From contig DASVDF010000050.1 of the NCBI GenBank assembly GCA_036381215.1, positions 29,379-93,378 on the forward strand: 64,000 nucleotides of DNA, in the 5' to 3' direction. Of the stretch, positions 36,705 to 44,359 are shown in pieces (within the stretch, counting starts at the first letter, position 1; the number at the start of each line of letters is the position of its first letter). The notes below the pieces were generated by a model. It was given only the letters and a program-made list of their open reading frames with translations, had not been told where the DNA came from and ran no database searches. This DNA is from Woeseiaceae bacterium (GTDB lineage Bacteria; Pseudomonadota; Gammaproteobacteria; Steroidobacterales; Woeseiaceae). A program made the position numbers and the translations under genes.

Positions 36705-38234
36705 TTACCGGCGGCGGCGGCCGGCGCGGGCGCGGCGGCCGGCGGCGGCCGGAGCCGCGGGTTCGGCGGCCGGCGGAAGCTCGGGCAGGGATTGCTGCTC
36801 GTGCATGCCGGCGAGGATCAGCTCGCGCATCGCGCGGTCGATCGCGGGGTCCGTCGCGATCGGCCGGTAAGCGGCGAGGCGCCGCTCGACCTCTTCCGTC
36901 GCGCGCGTGACGAGGTCCTTCGAGCCCTGTTTCTGCCAGGCCTCGCGGTTCTCGCGGTCGATGACCCTGTCGGTGAGGTACAGCTCGTTCGGCCAGTGCT
37001 TCAGCGTGTGCGGGCTCGTGATCAGGTGATCGTCGCGCCGCAGGTCGGTGACGATGTCGTCGATCGGAAGATCGTTTAGCACCTCGATCGGGCGGACGAA
37101 GTGCAGCGCCTGGCCGCAGACCTCGTTGTCGAACACGAGCTTGGGCAGGCTGAACGTCAGCACGAAGTCGAGCATGCCCGGACCGGACACCGAGTTCACC
37201 CCCGCGATGGCCGCGAGCAGCGCACTCGAGAACGTCTCGCCGCCCGCCTGCGCGTCGAGGAACTTGCCGTCGGAAAGCGCCATGTACGCCTGCGTCGGCA
37301 GCCCGAGGTGCTTCGCGATCTCGACGTAGCCGACGTTCAGATGCTGCGCCTCGATCGCGGCCATCGGCGAGCTCGCGGCTTTCATGTGGAACGTGGCGGG
37401 CGCGCCGCCGAACAGCACCGGCGTGCCCGGCCGCACGATCTGCGCCATCGTGATGCCCGTCAGCACGTCGACGCAGTGGAATACCAGCGCACCGACCAGC
37501 GTCACCGGTGCGATGAGTCCCATGAGCGTGACCGGCACGACCTCGATGGCGATGCCCGCGTCGACGCAGTCGAGCAGGTTCTGGCACGAGTCCTCGCCGT
37601 AGCGGAAATTGCCGGTCGCCGTGATCGTGAAGATCGACATCGGCTTCGCGACCAGATCCTCGCGGCTCGCGCGGAACATGCCGAGCATCTGCGCCATGCG
37701 CGGCACGCCGTGCTCGCTGAACGCACCGGAGACGACCGGCTTCTTCGACGTCGTGAGCGTCATGTAGAGGCGCCAGGCGTCCGAGACCTGCGACTCGATG
37801 TCCTTGTTGGTCGAGAATGCGGTGGCAAGGTACGCGACGTGCTCCAGCGTGTCGCACAGCCGCGCGTACTCGATGAAGTCCGTCGAGTTCGCAAGCCGCG
37901 TCTCGCCGGTCCTGTGATCGAGGATCTTGAGACCGCTCGAGCCCGGCACGAAATGCACGTTGTCGCCGCCGATTTCCGTGTACGGGTTGCCGTCGCGGTC
38001 GTACAACGTGAAGGAAGAGGGCGCCGCCGCGATCGCCTTGTCGACCACGTCCGGCGGGAACAGGACGCGCTTGCCGCTCGCGTCCGTCGGGAGCCCGTGA
38101 TCGAGCAACCGCTGCTTGAGCTTCGGGCCGCGGATCTCCATGCCGATTTCGGCCATGAGGCGCTTCGCCTCCTCGAGGATCCGCTCGATGAGCTCCGTTT
38201 CGAGTACCTGTAGCCTGGGACGCATCGGTTTCAC
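36705..38234 (-). CDS. MttB-superfamily (trimethylamine methyltransferase-like) corrinoid-dependent methyltransferase, non-Pyl, paralogue 1
   Basis: 509-aa track ORF with no in-frame stop. The N-terminus ([24 protein letters not shown]) and the TIM-barrel-length body fit MttB family proteins. The C-terminal tail is ...[14 protein letters not shown]. Confidence 0.85.
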
Positions 38235-38253
38235 TCCGGGTCAAAGCCGCCGT

Positions 38254-39792
38254 TCAGCTGACGGCGGCGGCGATTTCCAGCTTGCGGCGCGCGACGTAAT
38301 CGGCGAGCGCTTCTTCCGTCGCCGGGTCGATGGGCGGCTTCTCGTAGTCGGCCACGAGCCGTTTCCAGATCGCGTTCGCGCGGACGGCGGCATCCTGGCT
38401 GCCGGCTTCACGCCAGCGTTCGAAATTGCGGCGGTCGGAGAGCATTGGCCGGTAGAACGCCGTCTCGTATCGCGCGAGGGTGTGCGGGGTCCCGAAATGA
38501 TGGCCGCCCGGAGGCACGTCCGCGATGGTCTGGATCGCGAGCTCGTCGTCGTCGACGCGCAGCGGCCGCATGCATTCGACCAGCATCTGCAGCATCTCTG
38601 CGTCGACGATCAGCTTTTCGAACGACGCGGTGAGCCCGCCTTCGAGCCAGCCGGCGGCGTGATTGACCAGGTGCGCGTGCCCCAAAAGGGCGCCCCACAG
38701 CGACATCTGGCTCTCGTAGGCCGCTTGCGCGTCCACGCAGTTCGAGCTGGTCGTGTTGCTGGAGCGGAACGGCAGGCCCAGCCGGCGCGCGATCTGTCCG
38801 CTGGCGCAGGCCATCTTCGTGTATTCGGGCGTGCCGAGCGCCGGCGCGCCGCTCTGCATGTCGACGTTGGAGGCGAACGCGCCGTACATCACGGGCGCGC
38901 CCGCGCGCACGATTTGCGCCAGCGTCACCACCGCGAGCACCTCCGCCGTCTGCTGCGCCAGCGTCCCGGCGAGCGTCGCCGGGCTCATGGAACCCGACAG
39001 CGTGAACGGCGTGATGCAGTTGACCTGCAGCGATTCGGCGAGCTCGATCGTCGCCTCGGTCATCGCGACGTCGAGCTGCATCGGCGAGTTCGTGTTGACG
39101 ATGGCGAGCACGGCAGGCGCGCGCTCCAGCTCCGCGCGGTCGATGCCGAGCCCGATGCAGGTCATCTCCAGACAATCGCGGGTGCGCGCGCGCCCGAGCG
39201 CGTAGGCCTGCGCATTCTTGTCGAGCAGCGTGAGCTGCGCGAGATAGAGATCGAGGTGGCGCGACTCCGGCGGCAGGTCGAGCGGTTCGAAGGCGCCGCC
39301 GCCTTCCTGGTGGATGACGTCGAGCCCCTGGATCACGCGGAAGTAGTCGCACAGCTCCGCGTAGGTGCCCGGCCGCCGGCCCTTGTCGAGATCGCTGACG
39401 AACGCGGGGCCGCCCACCGCCGCGAACACGACGTGCTCGCCGCCGATGACGAGGTCCTTCGCCGGGTTGCGCGCACGCAAGGGGAATTCGGCGGGCGCGG
39501 CCGCGAGCTTCTCGAGCACGAGCCCGCGCTCGAAGCGCACCATGCGCGTGGCATCGTCCACGTCGGCACCGGCGCTGCGCAGGCGTTCGCGGCTGGCGTC
39601 TTCCAGGAAACGGAAACCCTTGGTCTCGAGGATCGTGAGCGCGGCGTCGAGGATCGTCTCGACCTGGTCCGCGGAGAGCACCTCGAGCGGCGGGTACGGG
39701 TTGCGCACGCGCTGCCATGGCAGCTGCTGCACGGCGGCCACGCTGCGCCGCTGCCGGTGCCGCCGCCGCGTCACGCGAGTGCCCTCCGTCAT
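38254..39792 (-). CDS. MttB-superfamily corrinoid-dependent methyltransferase, non-Pyl, paralogue 2
   Basis: The real part of the 1142-aa track ORF begins at MTEGTRVTRRRHRQRRSVAAVQQLPW. LSADQVETILDAALTILETKGFRF is the typical MttB N-terminus. There is no in-frame stop. Confidence 0.85.
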   Translation of the reverse strand: MTEGTRVTRRRHRQRRSVAAVQQLPWQRVRNPYPPLEVLSADQVETILDAALTILETKGFRFLEDASRERLRSAGADVDDATRMVRFERGLVLEKLAAAPAEFPLRARNPAKDLVIGGEHVVFAAVGGPAFVSDLDKGRRPGTYAELCDYFRVIQGLDVIHQEGGGAFEPLDLPPESRHLDLYLAQLTLLDKNAQAYALGRARTRDCLEMTCIGLGIDRAELERAPAVLAIVNTNSPMQLDVAMTEATIELAESLQVNCITPFTLSGSMSPATLAGTLAQQTAEVLAVVTLAQIVRAGAPVMYGAFASNVDMQSGAPALGTPEYTKMACASGQIARRLGLPFRSSNTTSSNCVDAQAAYESQMSLWGALLGHAHLVNHAAGWLEGGLTASFEKLIVDAEMLQMLVECMRPLRVDDDELAIQTIADVPPGGHHFGTPHTLARYETAFYRPMLSDRRNFERWREAGSQDAAVRANAIWKRLVADYEKPPIDPATEEALADYVARRKLEIAAAVS

Positions 39793-43060: not shown

Positions 43061-43647
43061 TGAATCACGTGCCCGGCGAGCGCGTCGCGGAACGGCGCAA
43101 GCCCCGTGAAACGCGTGACGAGCGGGAGCGCGAGGCGGCGCGCGTGCGCCTCCGCCAGGGCCTCCAGCTCCGCGGACTGCGTTTGGGCGAGGTAGACGAC
43201 GCGCCGGTAGTGGCGAAAGTACTCGTCCCGGAGCTCCGGGTGCCGGTCGAGGCCGAGGCCCTTGATGACAAGGCGCTCGAAATGGCGCACCAGGAAATCC
43301 GTGAGATAGAACGTGCCGGGTTCGGCATCGGCGAGCGCGGCGAAAGCGTCAGCGCCGCCGAAGAACTCGTAGCAGTGCGCGCCGGGGAGACGCTCGATTG
43401 CATAGGGCGCGAGCGCCTTGTCGAGCAGCCCGCCGGTGCCGCAATCGGCGTAGGCAACGAAGATGTGCTCGACACGGTCGCGGTACGCCTCGATCATCTC
43501 CACGACGGCACCGGGAATCCTGTCCGGCGTGTTGTGCAGGTCTGCCGGGAGGCATTGCACCTTCAGGTAGTCCCAGCCGTTCTGGCGGGCGACGAGCACG
43601 AGCTCCTTCGCGAGGGCGCCGCAGGCGATGACCAGTGTCTCGGCCAT
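43048..43647 (-). CDS. DUF1638 domain protein
   Basis: Start trimmed to MAETLVIACGALAKELVLV. CLPADLHNTPDRIP and YADCGTGG are DUF1638-type motifs. 13-nt overlap with the downstream gene. Confidence 0.75.
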   Translation of the reverse strand: MAETLVIACGALAKELVLVARQNGWDYLKVQCLPADLHNTPDRIPGAVVEMIEAYRDRVEHIFVAYADCGTGGLLDKALAPYAIERLPGAHCYEFFGGADAFAALADAEPGTFYLTDFLVRHFERLVIKGLGLDRHPELRDEYFRHYRRVVYLAQTQSAELEALAEAHARRLALPLVTRFTGLAPFRDALAGHVIQWRN

Positions 43648-43657
43648 GCCACCAGAC

Positions 43658-44359
43658 TTACGAGGCGCGCCGCTCTCTGACGAGCTGTTTCGCGACCTCG
43701 ACGGCGGTCGCCGCGTCGCGGCAGTACGCGTCGGCACCGATGGCTTTGCCGAAATCCTCGTTCAGCGGCGCGCCGCCGACCAGCACGATGTAATCGTTGC
43801 GCACGCCCTTTTCCCGCATCGTGTCGATGACGACTTTCATGTAGGGCATCGTGGTCGTGAGCAGCGCCGACATGCCGAGAATGTCCGGCTTCTCGCGCTC
43901 GAGCGCCGCCAAATACGCGTCCGCATCCGTGTTGATGCCGAGGTCGACGATCTCGAAGCCCGCGCCCTCCATCATCATGCCGACGAGGTTCTTGCCGATG
44001 TCGTGGATGTCGCCCTTGACCGTGCCGATCACCATCTTGCCGACGGGCTTCGCGCCGGTCTCGGCCAGCAGCGGGCGTAGCACGGCCATGCCGGCCTTCA
44101 TCGCGTTCGCGGCGAGCAGCACTTCGGGCACGAACAGGATGCCGTCGCGGAAATCCTCGCCGACGATGTTCATGCCGCCGACCAGCGCGTCGTCCAGCAC
44201 TTTGGTCGCGGGCCAGCCGCGGGACAGCAGGATGTTCGTGCCCTCGACGACCTCGTCGGCGAGCCCGTCGTACAGATCGTCCCACATCTGCTGCACCAGC
44301 TCGTCGTCGGGCAGGTCCGCGAGGACCAGGTCGTCGGCGTCTTCGTTCTGCTGCGACAT
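43658..44359 (-). CDS. corrinoid (cobalamin-binding) protein, MtbC/MtmC/MetH-B12-domain-like
   Basis: 233-aa track ORF with the helical cap domain, the DxHxxG motif in VKGDIHDIGKN, SALLTTT and VGGAPLN. The N-terminus is very acidic. Confidence 0.85.
   Translation of the reverse strand: MSQQNEDADDLVLADLPDDELVQQMWDDLYDGLADEVVEGTNILLSRGWPATKVLDDALVGGMNIVGEDFRDGILFVPEVLLAANAMKAGMAVLRPLLAETGAKPVGKMVIGTVKGDIHDIGKNLVGMMMEGAGFEIVDLGINTDADAYLAALEREKPDILGMSALLTTTMPYMKVVIDTMREKGVRNDYIVLVGGAPLNEDFGKAIGADAYCRDAATAVEVAKQLVRERRAS

Follow-up and report, generated by a model that had tools for sequence, protein, structure and literature searches.

Gene content and organisation of the locus

This study concerns a cluster of seven genes within a 64-kb stretch of DNA (hereafter the window; contig DASVDF010000050.1) from an uncultured gammaproteobacterium of the family Woeseiaceae, represented by a metagenome-assembled genome (MAG). 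Judging by the encoded proteins, we consider it very probable that the cluster is an MtgBCD-type modular cobalamin-dependent methyltransferase system of Woeseiaceae, equipped with two divergent proteins of the MttB superfamily that are here called MttB1 and MttB2.

Because the high GC content of the window (69%; range 64-72%) generates many spurious open reading frames, genes were called by codon-position GC. The seven co-directional genes listed by an initial annotation of this DNA were recovered as contiguous minus-strand frames at 36705-44359, each of them a single open frame with a third-position GC content (GC3) of 0.85-0.93, which is typical of genuine genes in the window. Domains were assigned to all seven with Pfam and NCBIfam profiles, and the results bear out the gene identities originally proposed (Table 1). 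In the order of transcription, the genes encode an MtgC-like corrinoid protein, a DUF1638 protein, a PF13769 protein, an MtgD-like methyltransferase that acts between methyl-tetrahydrofolate (methyl-THF) and the corrinoid, a RACo-type activase, MttB2 and finally MttB1. Successive genes either overlap, by 4-13 nt, or leave gaps of 10-38 nt; the RACo stop and the MttB2 start share a 4-nt ATGA (39789-39792), and the DUF1638 and PF13769 genes overlap by 13 nt. Given this close packing, we conclude that the seven genes form an operon.

The start of the MtgC-like gene is preceded by GAGAGG, 6 nt before the ATG. For the DUF1638 gene the likeliest start is the ATG at 43647, which yields a protein of 199 aa that matches its homologues, and an alternative MttB1 start (ATG 38225) yields a 506-aa protein that matches the database copy. 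A consensus scan of the leader revealed no sigma-70-like or terminator-like site over shuffled background. Likewise, no cobalamin riboswitch was found by Rfam at the gathering score across the whole window or at E<=1 in the interval 44200-44700, in agreement with the earlier reading of this region, and the only match of any kind in the Rfam scans (the whole window at the gathering score, the leader at E<=1) was to tRNA.

Table 1. Genes and leader of the methyl-transfer operon, in the order of transcription
Feature	Coordinates	Strand	Length	Domains and remarks
Leader	44360-44493	-	134 nt	Between the GH94 stop and the MtgC start; presumed promoter and leader
MtgC-like corrinoid (cobalamin-binding) protein, putative methyl carrier	43658-44359	-	233 aa	PF02607, PF02310
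DUF1638 protein	43048-43737	-		PF07796
PF13769 'Virulence_fact' protein	42758-43060	-	100 aa	PF13769
MtgD-like methyl-THF:corrinoid methyltransferase	41812-42720	-	302 aa	PF00809 Pterin_bind; pterin-binding TIM barrel
RACo/RamA-type ATP-dependent reductive activase	39789-41855	-	up to 688 aa	Fer2, RACo_linker, Raco_middle, RACo_C_ter
MttB2	38254-39792	-	512 aa	PF06253 MTTB, 608 bits
MttB1	36705-38234	-	509 aa	PF06253 MTTB, 264 bits

A module shared with Sinorhizobium meliloti

The MtgC-like protein combines a B12 cap with a Rossmann domain and carries the DxHxxG motif as DIHDIG at residue 117. When annotated replicons were searched by tblastn with this protein, homologues at 75-77% identity were recovered from Sinorhizobium, Mesorhizobium, Aminobacter and Paracoccus, including the S. 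meliloti cobalamin-binding protein encoded next to DUF1638 and MttB genes (76%) and a Paracoccus copy (75%). It scores below the cut-offs of both available MtgC models, and its best NCBIfam match (corrin_MtgC_2) reaches 205 bits against a cut-off of 370; the S. meliloti orthologue likewise falls short, at 212 bits. The MtgD-like protein matches NF005719 PRK07535 at 372 bits (cut-off 259) and is 62-63% identical to proteins named ‘methyltetrahydrofolate cobalamin methyltransferase’ in S. meliloti (62%) and Paracoccus.

The activase has cysteines at positions 59, 65, 68 and 113/118 available for a 2Fe-2S cluster and shares 57.5% identity with the ASKHA protein of S. meliloti. Its scores lie below the equivalog cut-offs for both AcsV (NF040756, 377 versus 800 bits) and RamA (TIGR04270, 103 versus 500 bits), and its sequence places it in a distinct proteobacterial subfamily that shares the RACo/AcsV/RamA domain architecture. 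We also considered a Wood-Ljungdahl context (AcsE/CoFeSP/AcsV), which was ruled out given these sub-threshold equivalog scores and a window that carries no CODH/ACS genes.

The two small proteins of the module are less familiar. The DUF1638 protein matches PF07796 at 92 bits and shares 47-50% identity with the copies in S. meliloti (47%) and Paracoccus; by analogy with the aerobic systems described below, it would be an accessory factor tied to B12 reactivation. Searches for a PDB relative, a PHROG lead or a literature lead on DUF1638 yielded only the work of Price et al. (2018). The PF13769 protein (68.5 bits) is 50.5% identical to the copy in the S. meliloti mtg locus. Homologues are present in 34 related loci, and in the 24 of these that retain the full gene order the PF13769 gene sits between those for DUF1638 and MtgD. 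A PF13769 gene was also noted at 15897-16199 of locus L087. The corresponding searches gave no PDB relative, PHROG lead or mention in the searchable literature. The pattern of conservation suggests that the PF13769 protein is a conserved accessory part of the module.

The S. meliloti mtg locus comprises an MttB gene and genes for DUF1638, a ‘virulence factor’ (PF13769), MTHFR, methyl-THF cobalamin methyltransferase and an ASKHA activase, with bmt (MtgE) located ~8 kb away. Its MttB protein is identical to PDB entry 4YYC over the part compared, and is 40% identical to MttB2 and 26% identical to MttB1. The high identity of the shared genes set against the low identity of the MttB genes indicates that the shared module is orthologous and that the substrate modules have diverged.

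MttB2 is predicted to recognize a carboxylated quaternary amine

Both MttB proteins are near full-length members of PF06253, matching profile positions 4-499 (MttB2) and 29-492 (MttB1) of 500 with scores well above the curated cut-off of 25 bits. Neither frame contains an internal stop, and the two end in TGA and TAA. Pyrrolysine (Pyl) 334 of the Methanosarcina MttB is replaced by threonine in MttB2 and by leucine (Leu320) in MttB1, so the initial annotation was right to classify the two as non-Pyl members that lack an in-frame TAG. Residues were compared using PDB alignments and a 107-sequence MAFFT alignment.

The substrate site of Desulfitobacterium hafniense MtgB provides the most informative reference. 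Mutagenesis and a ligand-bound structure have established that Tyr97 and Phe356 of this enzyme make cation-pi contacts to glycine betaine, while Arg312 and His348 hold its carboxylate (Picking et al. 2026, PMC13080624). Arg312 is also conserved in four enzymes whose substrates are acidic quaternary amines, namely MtcB, MtpB, MthB and MtyB (PMC13080624). In Pyl-MttB, Gly110-Thr111 and Tyr364 are fully conserved and are important for activity (PMC9842639).

MttB2 matches the S. meliloti protein 4YYC (E=2e-104 over residues 23-506) and MtgB (2QNE, E=1e-87), and shares 36% identity with the latter; a neighbour-joining tree places it on the branch that holds MtgB and 4YYC. At the four MtgB positions Tyr97, Arg312, His348 and Phe356 it has Gly, Arg, His and Gly, such that the carboxylate-binding pair is retained and the aromatic pair is not. 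The same set of residues is found in 4YYC except at Tyr97; 4YYC also has Gly at Phe356, and both proteins have a Trp four residues after the His. Among 119 MttB2 orthologues the equivalents of Arg312 and His348 are invariant, and the Gly at the Tyr97 position and the Trp show only rare single-sequence exceptions. The positions that correspond to Gly110-Thr111 and Tyr364 of Pyl-MttB are occupied by Gly-Gly and His.

These residue patterns indicate that the substrate of MttB2 is most likely a carboxylated quaternary amine. Among such compounds we favour glycine betaine as the leading candidate, given the known role of the system. Proline betaine, carnitine and gamma-butyrobetaine may also serve, since the aromatic contacts differ from those of MtgB and one relative carries a gamma-butyrobetaine-hydroxylase-like (GBBH-like) gene directly downstream of its MttB genes.

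MttB1 appears to have an unusual and highly conserved pocket

MttB1 is roughly equidistant from MtgB (E=6e-54; 26% identity) and Pyl-MttB (E=1e-47). Its AlphaFold model (pLDDT 77, pTM 0.79) aligns with 2QNE, 9YCE, 7XCL and 4YYC at TM scores of 0.79-0.84 over ~480 columns, and the predicted TIM-barrel MttB fold of the protein is not in doubt. It carries Ser99, Gln315, Ser350 and Val358 at the positions of Tyr97, Arg312, His348 and Phe356, and thus has none of the four MtgB substrate residues, on a residue match that rests on an alignment at ~26% identity in which the flanking GLP...D.K..DAQAG.E and G.N motifs are conserved. MttB1 also lacks the one-residue insertion that MtgB has around His348 and aligns without gaps with Pyl-MttB at the active-site loop. 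Gly110-Thr111 and Tyr364 of Pyl-MttB correspond in MttB1 to Ser-Ser and Ser.

This unusual set of residues is strictly maintained. Ser99, Gln315, Ser350, Val358 and Leu320 are all invariant in 121 MttB1 sequences, with a rare single-sequence exception at Ser100, and 221 of the 509 columns are invariant, all pocket-equivalent positions among them. When 1.84 billion cluster representatives were searched exhaustively with a profile, MttB1 emerged as one full-length cluster at 50% identity, with the next relatives only 35-42% identical. In a plasmid and chromid collection of cultured bacteria, the relatives of MttB1 reach no more than 29% identity.

The binding pocket of MttB1 therefore appears, from its aligned residues, to differ from those of characterised members, and the protein is unlikely to hold its substrate by means of the Arg/His clamp. 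All characterised members that the MtgB active-site study aligned retain Arg312, but MttB1 has Gln at this position, so its methyl donor is probably of a new class. The donor may be a sulfonium compound or a non-acidic methylamine, or it may be another kind of molecule. For neither MttB protein can the substrate simply be read from the sequence, as was recognised at the outset.

Conservation and gene order among relatives

The distribution of the operon was examined by a species-level scan with one genome per species, and the locus counts given here refer to the best 80 loci. An MttB1 orthologue is present in at least 169 species-level genomes, and hundreds of close homologues are labelled Woeseiaceae or Gammaproteobacteria. 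Identity to MttB1 ranges from 75 to 97% across Woeseiaceae, Steroidobacteraceae and Halieaceae; the closest homologue belongs to a Woeseiaceae MAG (97%) with the same flanking genes. MttB2 and MttB1 genes are adjacent in 54 of the 80 loci, and the exact seven-gene order is preserved in 24, although just 51 loci have enough upstream sequence for the order to be assessed. Median identities to the window proteins are 81% for MtgD, 80% for MtgC, 79% for MttB1, 72% for PF13769, 71% for MttB2, 68% for RACo and 58% for DUF1638.

In 28 of these loci an insert of ~850 bp between the RACo and MttB2 genes encodes a 283-aa MTHFR (for example, L002 7574-8425 and L039 5587-6438). The RACo and MttB2 genes abut without an intervening MTHFR in the window and in four other loci. 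The description of the system as complete must accordingly be revised, since this gene is missing from the window. With no in-cluster MTHFR, the lineage of the window presumably uses one that is encoded elsewhere.

In most Woeseiaceae relatives (L011, L024, L027 and others) the cluster adjoins pdxH-tig-clpP-clpX-lon. L003 and L004, the relatives closest to the window, share with it a different placement, between a GH94 gene (44494-48880 side in the window) and a lactonase/2-hydroxyacid dehydrogenase gene pair (34510-36646 side), a difference in flanking genes from which we conclude that the operon has been relocated. The neighbouring genes offer no consistent clue to the substrate across the 80 loci: those that recur are the housekeeping genes pdxH, tig, clpP, clpX and lon, or MTHFR. 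Genes for BCCT and SSF transporters, a GBBH-like dioxygenase and a DAO-family oxidase each occur in few loci only, the dioxygenase following the MttB pair in one, and no dimethylglycine or sarcosine dehydrogenase gene recurs near the cluster in this set.

Several variant arrangements were also observed. In three loci labelled as Gammaproteobacteria or Pseudomonadales MAGs (L068, L069 and L081), one or more of three further genes come after the MttB2-MttB1 pair, namely those for an SSF transporter, a beta-lactamase-fold hydrolase and a betaine/carnitine/choline transporter of the BCCT type; L068 (~11500-16449) has all three. Some relatives have one or two extra divergent MttB paralogues (22-31% identical to reference MttB-family proteins) directly upstream of the corrinoid gene (L001 1-1003, L021 2749-6000, L044 577-4011 and L048 5365-6894). 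In five Steroidobacteraceae-like MAGs (L054, L070, L071, L073 and L076), MttB1 occurs without MttB2 and a PF02574 gene is located 4-9 kb upstream; most of these loci also have molybdopterin oxidase and prolyl oligopeptidase genes upstream and a GGDEF-EAL gene downstream.

The wider MttB1 subclade

The relatives of MttB1 at 35-42% identity share the motif PGS[SA]...LPT[HQ]AY...SGPGM[IL]DF, usually followed by Glu. In these proteins His or Gln replaces Arg312, and Glu usually replaces Phe356. They form a large branch that contains none of the three solved reference proteins (MtgB, Pyl-MttB and 4YYC), in a tree whose characterised members are these PDB-derived sequences only.

The nearest of these relatives are encoded in compact clusters that combine a B12-binding protein, a PF02574 homocysteine S-methyltransferase and an MttB protein (L083 6279-9467, L089 3969-7642, L090 1455-5111 and L085 7342-11175). 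One such cluster has a weak match to the MetH activation domain (PF02965) and another has a URO-D/MtaA-like gene; an archaeal-looking relative adjoins a gene for a URO-D/MtaA-like methyltransferase. As a lead rather than a result, we point out that these clusters resemble split methionine synthases in which an MttB-like barrel might replace the pterin-binding module. No description of a split methionine synthase with an MttB barrel was found in the literature examined. It is conceivable, and we propose it only tentatively, that MttB1 represents a new substrate class of the MttB superfamily that uses neither the Arg/His carboxylate clamp nor pyrrolysine, and that its wider subclade includes undescribed split methionine synthases that accept methyl groups from a donor other than methyl-THF.

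Proposed mechanism and alternative explanations

Systems of this type have been characterised in aerobic bacteria. In Phaeobacter inhibens, fitness profiling revealed that separate corrinoid, pterin-binding and homocysteine-binding proteins make up a split methionine synthase, which also needs a RamA-like ferredoxin/DUF4445 protein and DUF1638 (Price et al. 2018, PMC5764234). In Ruegeria pomeroyi, neither methionine synthesis nor growth on glycine betaine is possible without MtgC and MtgD (Mausz et al. 2025, PMC12478193), and N-osmolytes induce a second MTHFR together with RamA, DUF1638 and two PF06253 proteins (PMC12478193). During growth of the model organisms on betaine, the MttB, MtgC and MtgD proteins increase and MtgE decreases (PMC12478193). 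The mtg genes occur in Alpha-, Gamma- and Deltaproteobacteria, often in clusters, and genomes can have up to seven PF06253 paralogues that probably serve other methylated compounds (PMC12478193). Genetics and proteomics have demonstrated that the module of MtgC, MtgD, RamA-like and DUF1638 proteins with one to seven PF06253 proteins operates in aerobic R. pomeroyi and P. inhibens, and the module is reported across Alpha-, Gamma- and Deltaproteobacteria (PMC12478193; PMC5764234; bioRxiv 10.64898/2025.12.19.695462).

From the gene content, orthology, conservation and residue patterns observed at the Woeseiaceae locus, we infer the direction of flux, the substrates and a part in methionine synthesis as follows. 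Each MttB-family TIM barrel would bind a methylated substrate and hand a single methyl group over to the corrinoid of the MtgC-like carrier in its Co(I) state, with MttB1 presumably taking a different methyl donor from MttB2. The MtgD-like enzyme would then move the methyl group from CH3-Co(III) to THF, and the resulting methyl-THF would be oxidised by MTHFR (encoded in the cluster in most relatives and presumably elsewhere here) for oxidation or assimilation of the one-carbon unit. Whenever the corrinoid becomes oxidised to inactive Co(II), the RACo/RamA-type 2Fe-2S ATPase should re-reduce it, with DUF1638 and perhaps the PF13769 protein acting as accessory factors. This retains the relay from substrate to cobalt to THF that was originally proposed, and the comparisons above support it. 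By analogy with Ruegeria and Phaeobacter, the MtgC/MtgD pair is probably also reversible, transferring methyl groups from CH3-THF to cobalt and feeding a separately encoded MtgE for methionine synthesis. The initial annotation had missed this probable additional function of the corrinoid and pterin-binding modules.

An alternative that we regard as improbable is that the cluster is primarily anabolic, with MtgC, MtgD and an MtgE encoded elsewhere forming a split cobalamin-dependent methionine synthase that RACo and DUF1638 reactivate, and with the MttB pair supplying alternative methyl donors for homocysteine. P. inhibens and R. pomeroyi depend on the orthologues of the MtgC, MtgD, RamA-like and DUF1638 proteins for methionine prototrophy, and PF02574 genes lie near stand-alone MttB1 genes in the five loci noted above as well as in the compact clusters of its nearest relatives, among them the one with the weak PF02965 match; an in-cluster MTHFR is compatible with flux in either direction. 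However, no PF02574 gene was found in the operon or the 64-kb window, and the opposite responses of the MttB, MtgC and MtgD proteins and of MtgE to betaine argue that the MttB-bearing form of the system is catabolic. The catabolic and methionine-synthase roles are, moreover, not mutually exclusive. A further alternative rests on the names given to the close homologues of both MttB proteins in source databases (‘trimethylamine--corrinoid protein Co-methyltransferase’), the position of TIGR02369 as their top NCBIfam match and the ungapped alignment of MttB1 with Pyl-MttB near the active-site loop, all of which would fit an operon for trimethylamine demethylation. We give this explanation very little chance, given that the two proteins score 291 and 286 bits with TIGR02369 against a cut-off of 525, that Leu and Thr replace Pyl334 with no in-frame UAG, and that Gly110-Thr111 and Tyr364 are replaced as well, by Ser-Ser and Ser in MttB1. 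Pyrrolysine is thought to turn trimethylamine into a quaternary adduct, and the sole tRNA in the window is a tRNA-Pro. Finally, the absence from MttB1 of all four MtgB substrate residues and a Pfam score less than half that of MttB2 could mean that it is a degenerate or regulatory paralogue without catalysis, retained only through its linkage to MttB2. There is scarcely any likelihood of this, since MttB1 is the most conserved substrate module (median identity 79% against 71% for MttB2, and 221 of its 509 columns invariant), is found alone in many genomes, has a full-length MttB fold, and belongs to a wider subclade that occurs in its own corrinoid methyltransferase clusters.

Several points weigh against our preferred explanation of an MtgBCD-type system that demethylates betaine-like compounds. 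MttB2 shares just 36-40% identity with MtgB and 4YYC and has neither of the aromatic residues with which MtgB contacts the trimethylammonium group, and therefore glycine betaine is not assured as its substrate. The residue comparison covers the PDB-derived MtgB, Pyl-MttB and 4YYC sequences, and the only aerobic members with functional support are R. pomeroyi SPO2108 and SPO2134 and P. inhibens MtgB1. In addition, domain assignments across the 64-kb window identified no gene for a betaine transporter, MTHFR, MtgE, MetH/MetE, or cobalamin synthesis or uptake.

The host and the remainder of the window

Members of the Woeseiaceae are described as metabolically versatile sediment bacteria (PMC12175321). 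The comparative genomics paper on this family makes no mention of cobalamin, betaine or methyltransferase genes (PMC12175321), and no paper that ties MttB or trimethylamine methyltransferase to the family's own genomes was found in the searchable literature. The portrayal of the host as an aerobic sugar degrader is an interpretation based on the genes for glycoside hydrolases nearby.

The rest of the window holds genes for polysaccharide synthesis, a GH31 enzyme, a glycan-utilisation locus and oxidoreductases, none of which is related to methyl transfer. In the glycan-utilisation locus (46961-60043), an SSF-GH94 pair (GH94 being the cellobiose/cellodextrin phosphorylase family) is divergent from a series comprising genes for a TonB-dependent receptor, SapC, cupin_8, a tryptophan-halogenase-like protein, DUF6445, GH9 and LacI, after which genes for a GH67 alpha-glucuronidase and a GH3 enzyme follow on the opposite strand. 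The SSF transporter (46961-48880) was considered as an uptake protein for the methyl-transfer system and was rejected: its gene overlaps the GH94 gene and so belongs with the glycan-utilisation locus, and this neighbourhood is common only to the two closest relatives, of which L003 has both SSF and GH94 genes and L004 has GH94 only. The initial annotation can therefore be upheld in its statement that no betaine transporter gene is adjacent. Elsewhere, a GMC oxidoreductase gene overlaps one for a gluconate 2-dehydrogenase subunit-3 homologue (28766-31200, plus strand), which suggests a membrane-bound sugar or polyol dehydrogenase. A tRNA-Pro (CGG) gene at 34287-34363 on the minus strand is the sole RNA gene detected in the window.

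Significance

If the proposed function is correct, aerobic MtgBCD osmolyte demethylation extends to Woeseiaceae and related Gammaproteobacteria, and marine sediments would have a demand for cobalamin and a sink for methylated amines that current models lack. The families that hold MttB1 (Woeseiaceae, Steroidobacteraceae and Halieaceae) include very abundant marine-sediment bacteria. The compact and fully clustered operon should be convenient for reconstitution, and MttB1, which is highly conserved, accompanies a betaine-type MttB and appears to have a pocket unlike that of every characterised member, offers a target for the discovery of a new superfamily substrate.

Comparison with known systems

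The Methanosarcina barkeri MttB/MttC/RamA system (7XCL) resembles the Woeseiaceae operon in superfamily, in fold and in its use of a corrinoid partner and an ATP-dependent activase, and MttB1 shares its ungapped active-site loop. In contrast, the Woeseiaceae proteins have no pyrrolysine and do not conserve Gly110-Thr111 or Tyr364, and the methyl acceptor would be THF, reached through a pterin-binding protein, rather than coenzyme M. Closer in logic is the three-component relay of D. hafniense MtgB/MtgC/MtgA (2QNE, 9YCE), with which the operon also shares the TIM-barrel fold and, in MttB2, the equivalents of Arg312 and His348. However, D. hafniense is an anaerobe, MttB2 has neither Tyr97 nor Phe356, and MttB1 has none of the four residues. 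In Eubacterium limosum, a single set of corrinoid protein, methyl-THF-forming methyltransferase and activase (MtqC, MtqA and RamQ) serves several MttB paralogues that differ in specificity (MtpB, MtcB, MtyB and MthB), as we propose for the two paralogues described here. That organism is an anaerobic acetogen that uses proline betaine, carnitine, gamma-butyrobetaine and phosphocholine, and all four of its MttB proteins are reported to keep the Arg312 equivalent, whereas MttB1 has Gln.

The greatest similarity is to the MtgBCD(E) systems of Ruegeria, Phaeobacter and S. meliloti, which have the same set of components (a corrinoid protein, a pterin methyltransferase, a 2Fe-2S/ASKHA activase, DUF1638, PF13769 in S. 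meliloti, and PF06253 paralogues) in hosts that are likewise non-methanogenic, non-acetogenic proteobacteria. The operon had been presented as out of place in an aerobic proteobacterium, but the same module functions in aerobic R. pomeroyi and P. inhibens, and the components found here share 47-76% identity with their S. meliloti counterparts. With the mtg system proven in aerobes, the idea that it is anomalous in such a host is out of date. The seven genes differ from their scattered counterparts in Ruegeria and Phaeobacter by their arrangement in one co-directional operon and by their presence in a gammaproteobacterial family, and unlike the S. meliloti locus they are accompanied by neither MtgE nor MTHFR. 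By its sequence, then, the operon is assigned as a gammaproteobacterial and fully clustered member of the MtgBCD/RamA/DUF1638 system established in aerobic bacteria, in which the new elements are the MttB1 orthologue group with its uncharacterised pocket, the conserved PF13769 accessory gene, and the occurrence of the system in Woeseiaceae.

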